Assembly (NCBI GenBank): GCA_964542315.1
Contig: CAZIUA010000003.1
Span: 3,679 to 67,678 of the forward strand
DNA: 64,000 bases
Direction of reading: 5' to 3'
Source of the DNA: an uncultured Faecalibacterium sp.
GTDB taxonomy: Bacteria > Bacillota > Clostridia > Christensenellales > Aristaeellaceae
Shown here: positions 33,135-56,215 of the stretch, one piece after another
Layout: each line of letters opens with the position of its first letter
Position numbering within the stretch: position 1 is the first letter of the stretch
The notes under the pieces: model-generated
What the model was told of the DNA's origin: nothing
What the model saw: the letters and a program-made list of their open reading frames with translations, nothing else
Database searches by the model: none
Program-made: the position numbers and the translations under genes

Positions 33135-34139
33135 ATGAAAAAACTGACTGCACTGCTGCTGACGTTCCTTTTCGCCCTGTCCGCCTGCACTGCTGCGCTG
33201 GCCTGGAGCTGCCCGTCCTGCGGCACGGAGGGCAACGGAAACTTCTGCGCCGAATGCGGCACGAAGCGCCCCGAGGAGAATATCTGCCCGAATTGCGGCA
33301 CGAATTATGGCAGCGAGAAGCCGAATTTCTGCATGGAATGCGGCACCCGTCTGACCGCTGCGGCCCCCACTGAGGCGCCTGCTGCTGCACCTACCGCAGC
33401 GCCCGCACCCGAGCAGAAGTACCTCGCGACCTCCAGCAGCGGGGTGAACATCGTCAGCGTCGAAACGCAGGAGAACGGCTTTGTTACCATCACCTGGGAC
33501 GACCTGAAAGACAACGGCCCGTACATGGCGCGCTTCGTGTCTGTGACCACCGGTGATTTCAACACCGACTGGAACAACAACGTCGCTCGCAGCGAGGCAT
33601 CCGATATCAGCGCGCTGAGCTACACCTATCAGTACCTCGTGCCGGGTGAGTCCTACTGGCTGGTCATCACCAACGCGGACAGGGACGGCGTGTACTACAA
33701 GTATGTTTCGCGCCCGGCCGAAGCCTTCGCGGATTTCGAGACCACTGTGTTCGTCAAGCCCCTCATGAGCCTGACGCTGGGGGATGTTTCCTCCCCGATG
33801 GAAGTGAGCAGCTTCTCTGCGGCGGAAATCGCCCTGCAGAACAGCGAACATGGCCTGTATGTGCAGCTGGATTACCCCGCACTGGACAGCGACATGGAAT
33901 ACGCCGCGCAGGAAGTGTTCACCGATCCGAACGGTTTCGCGCTGGTGGATGGCAGCCACACGCTCCCCTTCATCGCGTATGAAGAGGGCGGCTATCGCTA
34001 CTGGGACTTCTACGACCTGGCCTGGTACTTTAATGTCCTGAGCTATCAGTATGAGACCCTGCCCACGGGCACTTACACCATGAGCTTCTATCTGGATGGC
34101 GAGCTCGCGGCTGAAACGTCCTTCATCATCACGGACTAA
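33135..34139 (+). CDS. putative lipoprotein with two N-terminal zinc-ribbon motifs and a C-terminal domain of unknown function
   Basis: Signal plus lipobox-like LSAC. Then CPSCG...CAECG and CPNCG...CMECG, an Ala/Pro linker, and about 230 aa of unknown fold. Confidence 0.65.
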   Translation: MKKLTALLLTFLFALSACTAALAWSCPSCGTEGNGNFCAECGTKRPEENICPNCGTNYGSEKPNFCMECGTRLTAAAPTEAPAAAPTAAPAPEQKYLATSSSGVNIVSVETQENGFVTITWDDLKDNGPYMARFVSVTTGDFNTDWNNNVARSEASDISALSYTYQYLVPGESYWLVITNADRDGVYYKYVSRPAEAFADFETTVFVKPLMSLTLGDVSSPMEVSSFSAAEIALQNSEHGLYVQLDYPALDSDMEYAAQEVFTDPNGFALVDGSHTLPFIAYEEGGYRYWDFYDLAWYFNVLSYQYETLPTGTYTMSFYLDGELAAETSFIITD

Positions 34140-34184
34140 GCGAATATCATCAGGGCTTCCGCAGTGCAAAACTGCGGAAGCCCT

Positions 34185-34372
34185 CAGGGTGTCAAAAAAG
34201 TGGCGAAAGCCACTTTTTTGAGTTTGCACTCCGTCACTGTCAGGGCCGCAAGCAGCCCTGACGGCCGTTCCTCCGTGTAAAGAAGCGATTATTGCAAGCA
34301 AAATCGCCCGAAAATCGCCGCACATGTCGCTGATTTTCGATTTGCAGTCTGCCGACAGCGAGCAACTGACGC
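34185..34372 (-). repeat. 188-bp structured repeat family C, copy 1
   Basis: Its reverse complement aligns along its whole length with 50837-51024 (about nine positions in ten by manual alignment). Confidence 0.9.
34194..34219. terminator. bidirectional terminator embedded in repeat C
   Basis: AAAAAAGTGGC-GAAA-GCCACTTTTTT. Confidence 0.8.
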
Positions 34373-34577
34373 CCTCAGTTTGTCCCCTCTGCCCGATCGT
34401 GAAACGAGGCGAAACCACCGCGTGAAAACGAGGCGAAACCTCCGCCGGAAGGAGGGCGTTTCCTCCCCTTGGACACCATGTTAGTCGGATCGGGGCAATA
34501 TCTTTCCAATCGATGCAGGAAATGCATAGGTGAAGGGCGAATATGTTCATGACAATGCCGAAAAGGAGAACATCACG

Positions 34578-34817
34578 ATGAACGATATGCAAAAGCTGCT
34601 GACCATCCTTCGCGACGTAAACGAGGATGTGGACTTTGAGACCGAAAAGGCGCTGGTGGACGATGGGCTGATCGACTCCTTCGACATCAATGTGATGATT
34701 GGTGCGCTGGATGAAGCGTATGACATCCACATCGAGGTGGGGGACATCGAGCCGGAGAACTTCAACAGCGTGGAGGCCATTCTGGCGACGGTGAAGCGCT
34801 ATCAGGAGGCCAAATGA
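34578..34817 (+). CDS. D-alanyl carrier protein-like acyl carrier protein
   Basis: 79 aa. GLIDSFD carries the phosphopantetheine-serine context as in DltC (LLDSF). AAAAGGAGAA lies before the ATG. Confidence 0.75.
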   Translation: MNDMQKLLTILRDVNEDVDFETEKALVDDGLIDSFDINVMIGALDEAYDIHIEVGDIEPENFNSVEAILATVKRYQEAK

Positions 34818-36286
34818 TCCGCAATGTACTGCGCTGGCTGGAGGATACCGCGCAGCGCGATCCGCAGCACATCGCCTTTGCGGATGACCAGATGGCGCTG
34901 ACCTGGGAACAGGTGATGCAGCGCGCGCAGGAGATCGGCTCCTGCCTGCACCGGCTGATCCAGCCCCAGACCCCCGTGCTGGTGTATATGGACAAATCGC
35001 CGGATTGCATCGCGGCCATGCTCGGCGCGGTGTACGCGGGCTGCTTCTATACGCCCATTGACCCGGCCATGCCGGTCAGTCGCATGGAGCGGATCGTTTC
35101 CGTGCTTCAGCCGGGATGCATCCTCTGCCAGGGGCGGTACCGGGCGCAGGCGGAAGCACTGGGCAACGGGCGCAATGTGCTCACGGTGGAGGACATCGCC
35201 GCGCAGGTGGATCATGCCGGTCTGGCCGAGGTGCGCGCGCAGCATATGGACAACGACCTGCTGTATGTGCTCTTCACCAGCGGCTCTACCGGACTGCCCA
35301 AGGGCGTGGCCATCACCCACCGGTCGGTCATCGACTTTATCGAGTGGGCCTGCGAGACGCTGAATATCGATGCGGATTGCGTCTTTGGCAATCAGGCGCC
35401 GCTGTATTTTGATAATTCCGTGCTGGATATCTACTGCGCCGTCCGCATGGGCGCGGCGGTGCATTTTATTCCGCGGAAGTATTTCACCTTCCCCGGCAAA
35501 ATGACGGAATACCTGTCGGAAAAGGCGATCAACACCATCTTCTGGGTGCCGTCTGCGCTGACGGCGGTGGCGAATGCGGGTGCGCTGGAGAAGTGCGTCC
35601 CGGATGGGCTGGAGCGGGTCTTTTTCTGCGGCGAAGCCATGCCCTGCAAGACCCTCAACGCCTGGCGCGCTGCGCTGCCCGAGGCGCGCTATGTCAACAT
35701 GTATGGCCCGACGGAGATCACCGATGTGTGCACCTATTTCCCGGTGGCGCGCCCCTTTGCCGATGCGGAACCGCTGCCCATCGGCTTCCCCTGCGCCAAT
35801 GCGCGGGTGTTCCTGGTGGACGGGGAGATCTGCGTGGCAGGCACCTGCCTGTCACCGGGGTATTACAATGCGCCGGAAAAGACGGCGGAGGTCTTCGTGC
35901 GCAATCCGCTGCGCCGGGGCATCGACGAAACGATGTACCGCACGGGCGATCTGGGCGCGTATAACGACCGGGGAGAATTGATGTTCCTGGGGCGGAAAGA
36001 TTCGCAGATCAAGCGTCAGGGCTACCGGATCGAGCTGGGCGAGATCGAATGCGCCCTGTGCGCCCATCCTCAGGTGAAGGTCGGATGCTGCCTCTATGAC
36101 GCGCAGACGGAGCGCATTCTCGCGGTCTATACCGGGGATGCGGAGAGCAAGCAGCTCCTGCGCGCGATGAAGGAGCAGCTGCCGAAGTATATGCTGCCGG
36201 ATGCGCTGATCCAGCGGGAGGAGATGCCGCTGACGGGCAATGGCAAGATCGATCGTGTACGACTGAAAAACGAGGTCGTTGGCTGA
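34814..36286 (+). CDS. stand-alone adenylation enzyme, DltA-like (adenylase 1)
   Basis: LLYVLFTSGSTGLPKGV, YGPTE, YRTGDL, GRKDSQIKRQGYRIELGEIE, GNGKIDR. Retains FCGE at the position of the DltA pocket cysteine. ATGA overlap with the carrier gene. Confidence 0.85.
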   Translation: MIRNVLRWLEDTAQRDPQHIAFADDQMALTWEQVMQRAQEIGSCLHRLIQPQTPVLVYMDKSPDCIAAMLGAVYAGCFYTPIDPAMPVSRMERIVSVLQPGCILCQGRYRAQAEALGNGRNVLTVEDIAAQVDHAGLAEVRAQHMDNDLLYVLFTSGSTGLPKGVAITHRSVIDFIEWACETLNIDADCVFGNQAPLYFDNSVLDIYCAVRMGAAVHFIPRKYFTFPGKMTEYLSEKAINTIFWVPSALTAVANAGALEKCVPDGLERVFFCGEAMPCKTLNAWRAALPEARYVNMYGPTEITDVCTYFPVARPFADAEPLPIGFPCANARVFLVDGEICVAGTCLSPGYYNAPEKTAEVFVRNPLRRGIDETMYRTGDLGAYNDRGELMFLGRKDSQIKRQGYRIELGEIECALCAHPQVKVGCCLYDAQTERILAVYTGDAESKQLLRAMKEQLPKYMLPDALIQREEMPLTGNGKIDRVRLKNEVVG

Positions 36287-36309
36287 CCTCGGCGTGGAGG
36301 AGGCTGCGC

Positions 36310-37878
36310 ATGAGCATCCTGTCCCGGGATTTCCTCATTTTGGTCACGGTGCTGACCGCAGTGAACTACATCCTGCCTGTGCGATGGCGCTGGATGGCGT
36401 TGCTGGCGGGCAGCATGGTTTTTTATGCCGGTGCGGGCTGGCAGGGGCTGGCCTATCTGGGCGTGGTGACGCTGCTGACCTGGCTGGGCGGATGGTGTCT
36501 GGGCGCGAACTGCAAAAAGGAAAAGGCCGCGTCCCAGGAGGGCGACAAGGCAGAGGCGTACCGCATCAGGCGCCGCCGCAAATGGGCGCAGGCGCTCATC
36601 GTGACTCTCGTCATCGGCGGTATGGCCGTCATCAAGTATGCCGATCTGCTCCACGCAGGGGTGAATGCGCTGTACATGGCCCTTGTGGATGGCGCGAAGA
36701 CGCTGGACGCATGGTCACTCTTCGTCCCCCTGGGGCTGAGCTATTTCACCTTTCAGAGCGTGGGCTATGTGGTGGATTGCGCCCGGGGCAAGGTGCATCC
36801 GGAGAAAAATCCGCTGCGCTACCTGCTCTTTGTGTCCTTCTTTCCGCAGATCACCCAGGGCCCTATCACCACCTGGCAGCAGCTGGCGCCTCAGCTGCGC
36901 GAACCGGCGCGGTTTGAGCCGTCCGCCTTTGTGGCGGGCTTCCAGCTGGCGATGTGGGGCTATTTCAAAAAGCTGGTGCTGGCCGATCGTCTCGCCACGG
37001 TGACGGACTACATCACCAGGGGCAAGGCGATGCCCGGCTGGCTCATCCTGCTGGGTGTGGCGCTCTATACCATCCGCCTCTATGCGGATTTCTCCGGCGG
37101 CATGGATGTCATTCGCGGCGCGGCGAAGATGCTGGGCATCGACATGGCGGAGAACTTCCGCCGGCCGTTCTTCTCCACCAGCGTGGCGGAATACTGGCGG
37201 CGGTGGCATATCTCTCTGGGCACATGGTTCCGCACCTACCTGTTCTACCCGCTGACGACCTCGCGCTTCGGCCTGGCACTGTCCCGCGGGGGACAGAAGC
37301 TCTTCGGCAAGAAGGTCGGACGCATGCTGCCCGGCGCGATGGCGACCTTCATCATCTTCCTGCTCATCGGCATCTGGCATACCGCCAACTGGAACGCCGT
37401 GATCTACGGGGCGTATTTCGGCGTGCTGCTCAGTGCGGCGCTGCTGATCGAGCCGCTGCTGAAAAAGCTGCGGACGCGCCTGCACATCCCGGTCAAGAGC
37501 TGGTGGTGGAAGGGCATCGGGCTCATCCGCACCTGGCTGATGATCCTCCTGCCGCAGTATTTCGCCTTCACCGCCGGGCCGGAAAAGGGCTGGGGGCTGC
37601 TGTGCGCGACCTTCCGCAACTGGACGTTCACCGGCGCGGCAAAGGCCGTCAGCGCCGTCATGGATCCGCTGGAATGGTACATCGCCCTGATCGCGATGGG
37701 CATCGTGTTTGTTGTGGATCTGCTGTGTGAGCGCAAGGTGGATGTCAATGGGCGGCTGGCGCGCGGGAGCTTCCTCATCCGCTGGCCGATCCTCATCGCG
37801 CTGATCATGGCGACGCTGGTGTTCGGCTGCTACGGCGCGGGCTTTGATGCCTCCGCGTTCCTGTATACGCAATTTTAA
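36310..37878 (+). CDS. MBOAT family O-acyltransferase (DltB/AlgI-like, long form)
   Basis: Polytopic. RRWHISLGTWFRTYLFYPL and the conserved histidine context IGIWHTANWN. Confidence 0.85.
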   Translation: MSILSRDFLILVTVLTAVNYILPVRWRWMALLAGSMVFYAGAGWQGLAYLGVVTLLTWLGGWCLGANCKKEKAASQEGDKAEAYRIRRRRKWAQALIVTLVIGGMAVIKYADLLHAGVNALYMALVDGAKTLDAWSLFVPLGLSYFTFQSVGYVVDCARGKVHPEKNPLRYLLFVSFFPQITQGPITTWQQLAPQLREPARFEPSAFVAGFQLAMWGYFKKLVLADRLATVTDYITRGKAMPGWLILLGVALYTIRLYADFSGGMDVIRGAAKMLGIDMAENFRRPFFSTSVAEYWRRWHISLGTWFRTYLFYPLTTSRFGLALSRGGQKLFGKKVGRMLPGAMATFIIFLLIGIWHTANWNAVIYGAYFGVLLSAALLIEPLLKKLRTRLHIPVKSWWWKGIGLIRTWLMILLPQYFAFTAGPEKGWGLLCATFRNWTFTGAAKAVSAVMDPLEWYIALIAMGIVFVVDLLCERKVDVNGRLARGSFLIRWPILIALIMATLVFGCYGAGFDASAFLYTQF

Positions 37879-37890
37879 GGAGGGTCAAGG

Positions 37891-38931
37891 TTGGCACGAA
37901 TGAAAAAGATCATGGGCTTCTGGCTGCGGCTGGCGGCCTTCATGCTGCTGCTCCTCCTGACGATGGGCTATACGGTGTATGTCCTCACCCCCAAGCATGA
38001 TTACGGCATATGCCCGATCACCAACCTGTATCAGCAGGAGGCGGACACGGTGGATGTCCTCGTGCTGGGGACGAGCTGTGGATATTCGGGCGTGAACACC
38101 AATGTGCTCTGGACGGAATACGGCATTGCGGTGTATAACCTCTGCGGTGCTGAGCAGCCCTACTGGATCAGCTACTATTATCTGGAGGAGGCGCTGAAGA
38201 CGCAGACGCCCAAGCTGATCCTGGTGGACGCGAAGGCCTCCATCTATCAGGATGACTATTCCAAGCGCGGCCGGACGATCCTGTCCACCTACGGCATCCG
38301 CTCGCTGATCACGCGCATGAATGCCATTGCGGCCTGCGTCAGGGCGGAGGATTTCCTCGACTATGCCCTGGCCTTCCCCAAGCTGCACAGCTATTACAGC
38401 AATGTGAAGGCGGAGAACTTCGTCTATCCGCCGACGAACAGGGGACGCGGCGCGCACTGGAAGGGCTATATCGAGATGGACGCGACGCAGCAGCACGAGC
38501 GGCCGTCTCTGGTGTGGACGAACACCCGGCGCACCATCAATGCGCGCCAGAAGACGTATTTTGAAAAGCTGCTGACCCTCGCGCAGGCGCATGACATCCC
38601 CGTGATGCTGGTGGGCTTCCCGAATCCGGATTACGAGAACGACCACATGTACTTCAACACCCTGTGGAGCATCGCGGAGGAATACGGCATCCGCTGTGTG
38701 AATTACAACGATCCCGAAGAGGATCTGGATCTGCGCTATGCGTCGGATTTCGCGGACTGGCAGCACCTGAACGTCAAGGGCAGCGTGACCTTCTCGCGCC
38801 GCCTGGGCAGCGATCTGCGCGATATGTTCGACCTGCCCGACCGCCGGAACGATCCGGCCTATGATACCTGGCAGCAATGCGCGGACGACTGGTATGCCAA
38901 GTATCCCCAATACGCCCCGAAGGAGGAATAA
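37891..38931 (+). CDS. membrane-anchored DltD-like / SGNH-like protein
   Basis: N-terminal TM segment, VLVLGTS near the start, and C-terminal DWQHLNVKG resembling the DltD D-x-x-H-L-x-x-K-G block. The start is TTG at 37891 (8 nt after GGAGG) or ATG at 37900. Confidence 0.55.
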   Translation: MARMKKIMGFWLRLAAFMLLLLLTMGYTVYVLTPKHDYGICPITNLYQQEADTVDVLVLGTSCGYSGVNTNVLWTEYGIAVYNLCGAEQPYWISYYYLEEALKTQTPKLILVDAKASIYQDDYSKRGRTILSTYGIRSLITRMNAIAACVRAEDFLDYALAFPKLHSYYSNVKAENFVYPPTNRGRGAHWKGYIEMDATQQHERPSLVWTNTRRTINARQKTYFEKLLTLAQAHDIPVMLVGFPNPDYENDHMYFNTLWSIAEEYGIRCVNYNDPEEDLDLRYASDFADWQHLNVKGSVTFSRRLGSDLRDMFDLPDRRNDPAYDTWQQCADDWYAKYPQYAPKEE

Positions 38932-38934
38932 ACA

Positions 38935-40443
38935 ATGGTCGGCAATGTGCTGGAATATCTGGAGCATGCGGCGGTCACATGGCCGGATCGCGTGGCATTC
39001 GCGGACGAAAAGGAGCACCTGACCTTCGCCCGGCTGGAGGACACAGCGCGCCGGGTCGGCACGGCGGTGTCGGCGCATGCGCAGCAGCGTCAGCCGGTGG
39101 CGGTGGTGATGACGGACCGCAGCGTGCGCTGTGTGGCCGGGCTGCTGGGCGTGACGTATGCCGGCTGCCCCTATGCGCCGCTGGATGCGGCCATGCCGGC
39201 GGAGCGGCTGCAGATCATCCTTGATCAGCTGGAACCGGCGGCCATCCTTTGCGATGCGGACACCCGTCAGGTGGTGGAAAGCGTCCGCACGGCTTGTCCG
39301 GTGATCCTGTATGAGAAGGCAGCGGCATCCGAACGGGACGACGCGCGCCTGGCGGACATCCGCAGCCGGGACAGCGTGTATGACATCCTCTCCATCCTCT
39401 TCACCAGCGGCTCCACCGGCGTCCCCAAGGGCGTGGCGCAGAGCCAGTTCAGCTATGTGATGTACACCGAGGCCACGGTGGACAAGTATACCTTCACCCA
39501 TGATACGGTCTTTGGCAATCAGTCCCCGTTCTTCTATGCCAATTCCATCATCGATATCTTTCCGCCGCTTATGCTGGGCGCGAGGGTGTATATCCTGCCT
39601 GCACGCTGCCTGTCCTTCCCGCGCATGCTGGTGGAACAGCTCCGCGAGCAGCATATCACCGAGCTGACCATGACGCCCTCGAGCTATGTCAAGGCGGCGC
39701 AGGCCGGTGTGCTGGCGGAGAACAGCCTGCCCGAACTGGAATACATCATCCTTTCCGGTGAGGCGGCGCACTGGCAGACCCTCCAGTGCTGGATGAAGGC
39801 CGCTCCGAATGCAGGCGTGTGGAATTTCTACGGCTCGACGGAGGTGTTCTCCGTGGCGGTGTGGCGCATCGACCGTGAATTCGCCGAGGATGAGGTCATC
39901 CCCGTGGGCGTTCCCTTTGCCCCGGTGGAGGTACTGATCCTGGATGAGGACGGTCAGCCCGTTCTGCGCGGCGAGCGGGGGGAGATGTTCATCAGCAATC
40001 CCTGGCTGTGCTCCGGCTATTACCGGGACGAAACGCGCACGCAGGCGGCCTTTACGGTGGATCCGCTGGGACGCGGCTATCACACCCGGTATTACCGCAC
40101 GGGCGATATCGGCTGCATCGGTCAGGATGGCGTGCTGACTGTGCTGGGCCGCAAGGACAGCCAGATCAAGCGCGCGGGCTACCGCATGGAGATCGGCGAG
40201 GTGGAGGCTGCACTGCACAGCATCCCCGGCTGGGAGAACGGCTGCGTGCTGTATGACCGGGAGAGCGGCAAGCTCTGCTGCTTCTGGGAAGGTGCGCTGG
40301 GGCAGAAGGAAATCCAGGCGGCGCTGAAGAAGCAGCTGCCCCGTTACGCCCTGCCGGATACCTACATCCATGTGGATGAAATGCCCTACACGGCGAATAT
40401 GAAGATTGATCGCGTCCGGCTCAGGAAGATGATGCAGGCTTGA
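38935..40443 (+). CDS. second stand-alone adenylation enzyme (adenylase 2)
   Basis: ILSILFTSGSTGVPKGV, YGSTE, YRTGDI, GRKDSQIKRAGYRMEIGEVE, ANMKIDR. Has LSGE where adenylase 1 and DltA have FCGE. Confidence 0.85.
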   Translation: MVGNVLEYLEHAAVTWPDRVAFADEKEHLTFARLEDTARRVGTAVSAHAQQRQPVAVVMTDRSVRCVAGLLGVTYAGCPYAPLDAAMPAERLQIILDQLEPAAILCDADTRQVVESVRTACPVILYEKAAASERDDARLADIRSRDSVYDILSILFTSGSTGVPKGVAQSQFSYVMYTEATVDKYTFTHDTVFGNQSPFFYANSIIDIFPPLMLGARVYILPARCLSFPRMLVEQLREQHITELTMTPSSYVKAAQAGVLAENSLPELEYIILSGEAAHWQTLQCWMKAAPNAGVWNFYGSTEVFSVAVWRIDREFAEDEVIPVGVPFAPVEVLILDEDGQPVLRGERGEMFISNPWLCSGYYRDETRTQAAFTVDPLGRGYHTRYYRTGDIGCIGQDGVLTVLGRKDSQIKRAGYRMEIGEVEAALHSIPGWENGCVLYDRESGKLCCFWEGALGQKEIQAALKKQLPRYALPDTYIHVDEMPYTANMKIDRVRLRKMMQA

Positions 40444-40449
40444 TCGCAT

Positions 40450-40481
40450 GCGGCGGAGGAGAGATGCTTCCGCCGCTTTTT
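40450..40481 (+). terminator. rho-independent terminator of the Dlt-like operon
   Basis: GCGGCGGA-loop-TCCGCCGC followed by TTTTT. Confidence 0.75.
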
Positions 40482-40498
40482 ATGTTGCGCATTCCTGT

Positions 40499-56017: not shown

Positions 56018-56138
56018 GGTCCGGTGGTAATGACGAAGAGGTTCCACCTGTTCCCATTCCGAACACAGCAGTTAAGCTCTTCAGTGCCGAAAGTACTTGG
56101 CTGGACACGGCCTGGAAGGATAGGTCGCTGCCGGACAC
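56018..56138 (+). rRNA. rrf: 5S ribosomal RNA (not linked to 16S/23S in this window)
   Basis: ...GAAGAGGTTCCACCTGTTCCCATTCCGAACACAGCAGTTAAGCTCTTCAGTGCCGA...GGATAGGTCGCTGCCGGAC aligns block by block with Bacillus/Clostridium 5S. The ends pair (GTCCGG/CCGGAC). Confidence 0.85.
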
Positions 56139-56143
56139 CATAT

Positions 56144-56215
56144 TCCTCAGTAGCTCAATGGCAGAGCACCCGGCTGTTAACCGGGTTGTTGTAGGTTCGA
56201 GCCCTACCTGGGGAG
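56144..56215 (+). tRNA. tRNA-Asn (anticodon GTT)
   Basis: Manual cloverleaf: TCCTCAG acceptor, CCCGG-CTGTTAA-CCGGG anticodon arm, GTAGG-TTCGAGC-CCTAC T-arm. 72 nt, no encoded CCA. Confidence 0.9.

Follow-up and report, generated by a model that had tools for sequence, protein, structure and literature searches.

A 64,000-nucleotide stretch from the assembly of an uncultured Faecalibacterium sp. (contig CAZIUA010000003.1, positions 3,679 to 67,678; hereafter the window) carries an operon of five co-directional open reading frames (ORFs; 34578-40443) for a carrier protein, an adenylase (A1), a 522-aa membrane-bound O-acyltransferase (MBOAT), an SGNH-fold protein and a second adenylase (A2). With a probability of roughly 0.55, the operon represents a carrier-protein-dependent MBOAT–SGNH system that acylates an extracytoplasmic envelope polymer, using two different donors supplied by A1 and A2. 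A1 would adenylate a small alpha-amino acid, with D-alanine (D-Ala) as the default guess, and attach it as a thioester to the phosphopantetheine of the one carrier, while A2 would likewise load a carboxylic acid that has no alpha-amino group, for which alpha-hydroxy, alpha-keto or short acyl acids are candidates. The MBOAT would dock the loaded carrier and, by means of His300, transfer the acyl moiety to Tyr519 in the FLYTQF tail of the MBOAT at the external side of the membrane, from where Ser62 of the SGNH protein would take it up and esterify an envelope glycopolymer. Each of these chemical steps, together with the acyl-tyrosine intermediate, the substrates, the acceptor and the shared use of one carrier, is proposed by analogy with characterised systems.

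Layout and conservation of the five-gene cassette

The carrier gene (34578-34817; 79 aa), which is recognised as an ORF with a ribosome-binding site, shares an ATGA overlap with the gene for A1 (34814-36286; 490 aa). A gap of 23 nt separates A1 from the MBOAT gene (36310-37878; 522 aa), which is followed after 12 nt by the gene for the SGNH-fold protein (37891-38931; 346 aa from a TTG start, or 343 aa from an ATG at 37900) and, after a further 3 nt, by the gene for A2 (38935-40443; 502 aa). All five genes lie on the forward strand, each has a Shine-Dalgarno sequence ahead of it, and the operon is closed by an intrinsic terminator on the same strand (40450-40486) with a 10-bp stem of which 8 pairs are GC, followed by TTTTTATGTT. 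An earlier note on this DNA had placed all five ORFs in the same way, with the same order, lengths, overlap, gaps and strong terminator, and its remark that a DltX-like mini-ORF is absent also holds, as no such hydrophobic ORF was found in the 440-nt leader upstream of the carrier gene. No riboswitch or T-box able to name the substrate of A1 was detected by Rfam, either across the whole window or in this leader, and a sigma-70 promoter scan of the leader (34140-34577) gave no match. At 34400-34446 the leader contains a tandem imperfect repeat of 23-24 nt (tgaaacgaggcgaaaccaccgcg / tgaaaacgaggcgaaacctccgcc).

The earlier note had proposed a survey of other genomes for the same gene order, and had named loss of synteny in relatives as the observation that would separate A2 from the operon. 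One genome per species was scanned with a profile of the fourth protein, and the ORFs in the returned loci were classified by phmmer. The scan returned 34 species-level loci, all in uncultured metagenome-assembled genomes (MAGs) of the Clostridia/Christensenellales type from gut, rumen and digesters, and wherever the contig extends far enough the order carrier–A1–MBOAT–SGNH–A2 is kept, often with overlapping stop and start codons. About 30 species-level genomes of Clostridia/Christensenellales share the arrangement. A2 lies immediately 3' of the SGNH gene in 31 of the 33 assessable loci, the same five genes surround A2 orthologues of 73%, 64% and 53% identity, and two more relatives of A2 (52-54% identity) found among further metagenome contigs likewise sit inside the cassette. 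A2 is therefore not merely adjacent: it belongs to the cassette, translationally coupled and syntenic down to about 50% identity, and is not a chance neighbour.

The number of A2 genes varies around a constant core. In two related rumen MAGs (L024 and L033) the four-gene core is intact and A2 is absent, while in the lineage of L003 and L009 there are two A2-type genes whose pockets differ. In all loci there is one carrier gene per cassette, even where there are three adenylases. A four-gene core that stays fixed while the copy number of A2 ranges over 0, 1 and 2 fits a role of A2 as an add-on donor enzyme.

Several individual loci depart from the common layout. The third adenylase of L003 (10785-12305; also found in L004 and L009) is of the A2 type and lies about 280 nt downstream of the in-cassette A2, with the pocket ANITISFSVK vs ANTCVSFGVK in the in-cassette copy, and the carrier gene is still single. 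Bacillota bacterium OH_HBB_103 has two complete cassettes on different contigs (L014 and L037) whose A2 pocket subtypes differ (ANITISFSVK vs ANLCISFSVK); this MAG may be chimeric. In L016 (10056-11578) A2 is split into two overlapping frames, either as a frameshifted pseudogene or through an assembly error. In L050 (6481-8559) and also in L051, a gene 22 nt after A2 encodes a secreted lipoprotein of 692 aa that has Gly/Pro-rich repeats and no Pfam match.

Substrate pockets of the two adenylases

Both adenylases have an AMP-binding domain according to Pfam and NCBIfam, they are 39% identical to each other, and the core motifs A3-A10 are intact in both families. A1, a stand-alone adenylating enzyme of the non-ribosomal peptide synthetase (NRPS) type for amino acids, passes the corresponding model TIGR01733 with 346.3 bits (cut-off 317.4), while A2 stays slightly under this cut-off with 296.8 bits. 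The DltA equivalog TIGR01734 (cut-off 559.85 bits) is missed by both (A1, 297.2 bits; A2, 259.9 bits), and identity to genuine DltA, for which the plasmid-borne dltXABCD operons of B. thuringiensis and L. monocytogenes served as reference, is 30-31% for A1 and 27-28% for A2.

The motifs that the earlier note quoted for the two enzymes are present, namely FFCGE, YGPTE and FGNQAPLYFD in A1 and the counterparts ILSGE, YGSTE and FGNQSPFFYA in A2. Ten specificity positions were mapped in GrsA numbering, anchored by HMMER alignments to LgrA and by alignment with DltA. The resulting code is DLM(T/V)LCTVAK for DltA, DNLFFCMDVK for A1 and ANITISFSVK for A2, and that of DltA matches the D-Ala pocket described for this enzyme in the literature (Asp, Leu, Met, Cys; PMC8972799). 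A1 shares three of the ten positions with DltA (D, C and K) and A2 shares only K, so that the D-Ala pocket is found in neither. Between A1 and A2 the pockets differ at 8/10 positions, Asp235 included, and this difference is conserved.

In A1 the code DNLF(F/L)CMDVK is invariant at 9/10 positions in 32 orthologues, and Asp235 is present in 32/32. The enzyme retains, as does Dlt, this Asp235 (Asp200 in A1, codon 35411-35413), a DltA-type Cys that selects the enantiomer (Cys272, 35627-35629) and an NQAP...FD..S..D context, and its Lys478 is encoded at 36245-36247; of the residues that form the methyl cavity, 2/3 are unlike those of DltA. Since Asp235 and the Cys are kept but two of the three methyl-cavity residues differ, the substrate of A1 is likely a small alpha-amino acid, with D-Ala only a guess from the pocket residues. 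The Cys, whose position the earlier note had linked to D-alanine selection by Bacillus DltA, is thus insufficient alone to mark A1 as a D-Ala enzyme.

A2 has Ala at the alpha-amino-binding Asp235 position in 152/152 sequences (Ala202 in the window enzyme, codon 39538-39540; Ser274 lies at 39754-39756), while its catalytic motifs are conserved, namely the P-loop, TE, GD, GRxDxQxKxxGYR and Lys (A3, A5, A7, A8 and A10; Lys490 at 40402-40404). An aliphatic residue in place of Asp235 is the recognised signature of adenylation (A) domains that activate keto acids (PMC10949194). Because Asp235 is replaced by Ala while the catalytic motifs are all kept, A2 probably activates a carboxylic acid that is not an amino acid. 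In this combination of an aliphatic residue at position 235 with an intact catalytic core, A2 resembles the keto- and hydroxy-acid A domains of the cereulide and valinomycin synthetases. Those domains, however, are embedded in depsipeptide assembly lines with ketoreductase partners, whereas A2 is stand-alone, lies in an envelope-acylation operon and has no reductase. In contrast to the fixed pocket of A1, that of A2 comes in at least three subtypes, ANITISFSVK, ANTC(V/I)SFGVK and AN(L/F)C(I/V)S(F/Y)SVK, and two of them occur together in one genome.

That the two adenylases are redundant D-alanine-activating paralogues, or that A2 is an unrelated neighbour, is close to refuted and would be very surprising. 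DltA is indeed the best named stand-alone family for both enzymes, but the pocket differences hold across 152 sequences and A1 and A2 form separate clades in a neighbour-joining tree with few outgroups (bootstraps 100 and 96 of 100), while an unrelated A2 is at odds with the synteny described above. With simple redundancy ruled out, two different acyl groups, as the earlier note had suggested, are the best reading, although the change from Asp235 to Ala in A2 indicates a non-amino acid and not a second amino acid. We do not claim that A2 arose by duplication of A1, as the sister grouping of A1 and A2 in the same tree has a bootstrap of only 49/100. Giant multi-module NRPSs dominated a representative search of the whole library with A2, from which no clade could be read. 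Among plasmid-borne sequences, the best relative of A1 is one from Paenibacillus cellulosilyticus, which lies in an unrelated cluster of adenylase, acyl carrier protein (ACP) and KAS III genes that has no MBOAT, and which served as an outgroup only.

Two adenylases beside one carrier could also act in sequence, with A1 loading an amino acid and A2 N-acylating its amine by way of an acyl-adenylate, so that a single N-acyl-aminoacyl ester is exported. The missing amine-binding Asp of A2 is what would be expected of an acyl donor, and some adenylate-forming enzymes form amides directly. Nevertheless, we consider such a sequence improbable, as neither a condensation nor an amide-synthetase feature was found, the four-gene core of L033 looks intact in spite of having no A2, and a genome with two A2 subtypes fits alternative donors better.

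The carrier and the membrane module

The carrier holds its phosphopantetheine-attachment serine, Ser34, in the motif LIDSFD (codon 34677-34679). Its best NCBIfam match is the DltC equivalog NF003464, with 32.2 bits at a cut-off of 68 that is not reached, and in phmmer comparisons it has a weak but specific match to real DltC (E 4e-7).

The MBOAT scores 49.6 bits against Pfam PF03062, above the cut-off of 27, and its core (residues 110-415) aligns with DltB structures, with WRRWH placed opposite the WNRWH of DltB that includes the catalytic His (His300 in the window protein, codon 37207-37209). This DltB-aligned core is followed by two hydrophobic helices, placed by hydropathy at approximately residues 455-475 and 487-508, and then by the terminal FLYTQF (37858-37875; Tyr519 at 37864-37866). 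The C-terminus is FxYxxF in 35/35 MBOAT orthologues, and all compared long MBOATs outside Dlt, from Subdoligranulum and from the Metabacillus plasmid pB218, end in the same motif, while DltX ends in FIYNEF in both reference dlt operons. The Tyr of FxYxxF is an acyl shuttle that carries D-Ala in DltX and acetyl in PatA, and in PatA this motif forms one protein with the MBOAT, borne on two additional transmembrane helices (PMC12148441). Judged from its sequence, the window MBOAT, like PatA, carries the DltX-type motif itself, fused on a pair of extra transmembrane helices. The earlier note had pointed to the unusual length of the MBOAT and to the missing DltX as departures from the classical system; both are real, but they are explained by the FxYxxF tail that is fused to the MBOAT.

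With 145.9 bits against the DltB equivalog TIGR04091 the MBOAT does not reach the cut-off of 375, and in phmmer searches it scores 82-85 bits against the two reference DltB proteins, 151-251 bits against long MBOATs of Subdoligranulum and 189 bits against the long MBOAT of pB218. By these scores it is not a DltB orthologue, and it groups with the MBOATs of PatA/AlgI-type MBOAT–SGNH pairs.

No qualifying Pfam or NCBIfam match, DltD families included, was found for the fourth protein, its family profile has no match among PDB sequences, and in an hhalign comparison of the family with DltD the transmembrane helix alone matches. An AlphaFold2 (AF2) model of the protein (pLDDT 80) has DltD (6pfx; E 2.4e-3), TesA and PatB as its top Foldseek matches. 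Gly60, Ser62, Asp289 and His292 are invariant in 24 homologues, in the motifs GTS and DxxH, and the N-terminus forms an N-in transmembrane anchor (residues 14-32). The model and these residues point to a membrane-anchored SGNH-fold acyltransferase with a predicted Ser-Asp-His triad, formed by Ser62 (38074-38076), Asp289 (38755-38757) and His292 (38764-38766). The label DltD-like, under which the earlier note had introduced the protein, is justified by the fold and is an analogy of fold and role, not of family membership, because DltD sequence homology is found neither by profile nor by hhalign; a place in the DltD sequence family was thus rejected. Beyond the cassette, the protein is most closely related to the one encoded after a carrier-less long MBOAT in Subdoligranulum (L042; E 2e-35).

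It is also conceivable, although we regard it as unlikely, that A2 belongs to the system without using the operon carrier, and instead makes an acyl-CoA or loads an unlinked carrier, feeding the same MBOAT or a second acceptor. In its favour, the MBOAT has its closest relatives among proteins that work carrier-free, and A2 just misses the amino-acid adenylation cut-off of TIGR01733, is encoded last in the operon and is missing from two genomes. In contrast, A2 is most closely related to A1 and to NRPS A domains, which charge phosphopantetheine arms, and not to acyl-CoA synthetases; A2 is translationally coupled to the SGNH gene, and a second carrier gene is absent even from loci with three adenylases.

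The proposed system with two donors on one carrier has several points to reckon with, and all of the following weigh against it. The MBOAT is most closely related to proteins that have no carrier and presumably take acyl-CoA as donor, so it is operon linkage, and only this, that points to the carrier as the donor of the MBOAT, and the use of one carrier by both adenylases, with A2 loading the operon carrier rather than CoA or another thiol, is something we infer. Loss of Asp235 leaves the identity of the A2 substrate unspecified. Foldseek support for the fourth protein is moderate (best E 2.4e-3; query-normalised TM-scores 0.34-0.38), all genomes that carry the cassette are uncultured MAGs, and nothing about the acceptor can be read from the neighbouring genes, which have housekeeping and sugar-uptake functions and encode CinA, an M48 peptidase, GlyRS, a lipoprotein, GH35 and a sugar ABC transporter.

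Relation to known acylation systems and implications

The operon shares with dltXABCD a stand-alone adenylase beside a small DltC-like carrier, and, by analogy, an MBOAT that would use the Tyr route of FxYxxF together with an anchored SGNH protein that would deliver to a polymer. It differs from Dlt in having two adenylases instead of one, in its gene order and in the place of the DltX motif, for which there is no separate gene and which is fused to the MBOAT; moreover, no component of the operon reaches the curated Dlt cut-offs. With PatA/PatB, AlgI/AlgJ and WssH/WssI it shares a long MBOAT with two extra C-terminal transmembrane helices ending in FxYxxF and a separate SGNH partner that is anchored at its N-terminus, and such pairs in Oscillospiraceae are the nearest homologues of the window MBOAT and SGNH protein. 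The closest carrier-less relative of the window membrane module is found in Subdoligranulum variabile (OY725857.1; L042 7734-10977), where the gene for a long MBOAT with the C-terminus FIYFQF precedes that for a 492-aa homologue of the window SGNH protein, without carrier or adenylase.

MBOAT–SGNH systems other than Dlt have no carrier and use an acyl-CoA donor, and PatAB, AlgIJ and WssHI among them have no adenylase either and use acetyl-CoA (PMC12148441), whereas in the window and in all loci a carrier and adenylases, two of them in the window, are coupled to the MBOAT–SGNH pair. The combination of a carrier with a long MBOAT therefore falls outside the description in that paper, which limits carrier use to Dlt. 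From its sequences, the operon is a hybrid of a Dlt-like cytoplasmic module, in which the carrier, A1 and A2 have traits of DltC and DltA, and a membrane module of the PatAB/AlgIJ type. For a Dlt-like operon with two adenylases, or for a carrier-dependent long MBOAT, no precedent was found in the literature searched, the coverage of which was incomplete.

A partial parallel is found on the Metabacillus sp. plasmid pB218 (L045 6126-10454), where genes for an ACP and an AMP-binding protein lie upstream of a gene for a 503-aa MBOAT ending in FIYGGF. Unlike the window operon, this cassette has a single adenylase of 464 aa, which is of an unrelated subtype (33 bits vs A1; pocket SYSGTAMARK, without Asp235), and its fourth gene encodes a hypothetical protein that is not homologous to the window SGNH protein. 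Carrier-linked long MBOATs thus occur outside Dlt as well and may form a wider, uncharacterised class.

A product other than a decorated envelope polymer, namely a membrane lipid or a small secreted metabolite, would agree with polymer-synthesis genes not being found nearby and with the cluster of small-molecule type in which the best plasmid-borne A1 relative (Paenibacillus) resides. We give it little weight, as an MBOAT with FxYxxF together with an anchored extracytoplasmic SGNH protein is the architecture of polymer O-acylation, and related MBOAT–SGNH pairs are located in polysaccharide loci.

The surroundings of the cassette share features between genomes. In relatives (L001-L006, L024, L033, L049 and L050) genes for a sugar ABC transporter with MalK and GH3 genes recur beside it, and a convergent AraC-type response regulator often follows it; in the window its neighbours are a GH35 gene and a MalK-type transporter. 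Elsewhere in the window, positions 33135-34139 encode a 334-aa protein in which a lipoprotein-type signal (LSAC) precedes a double zinc-ribbon (Pfam DZR, below the cut-off), an odd combination for an exported protein. At 56020-56215 a 5S rRNA gene is directly followed by a tRNA gene, and as a 23S or 16S match is absent across the 64-kb window, the pair appears to be an orphan 5S-tRNA unit with protein-coding genes on both sides.

To our knowledge, Dlt-type D-alanylation is the only characterised export of carrier-bound acyl groups to envelope polymers in bacteria. The cassette merges this design with that of the acyl-CoA-type MBOAT–SGNH systems, and adds a second activating enzyme that is apparently unable to bind an alpha-amino group. 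A further-reaching version of the proposal, to which we give slightly less than even odds, is that one carrier and one exporter install two chemically different esters on a surface polymer in these Clostridia of gut and rumen, a cationic aminoacyl group supplied by A1 and a neutral hydroxyacyl or acyl group supplied by A2, with the diversifying A2 paralogues acting as swappable modules that determine the surface chemistry of each strain; a carrier-dependent MBOAT with a fused acyl-shuttle tail would then be seen here for the first time, as would a Dlt-type system for a non-amino acid. If the proposal of two donors on one carrier is true, the known ester chemistry of surface polymers widens, and the FxYxxF shuttle works with carrier-protein donors when it is fused to the MBOAT. 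The cassette would also test, as a natural experiment, how two kinds of acyl group are accommodated by the tunnel of a single MBOAT, and would offer a tractable route to the surface charge and immunochemistry of abundant uncultured Christensenellales-like bacteria of the gut.

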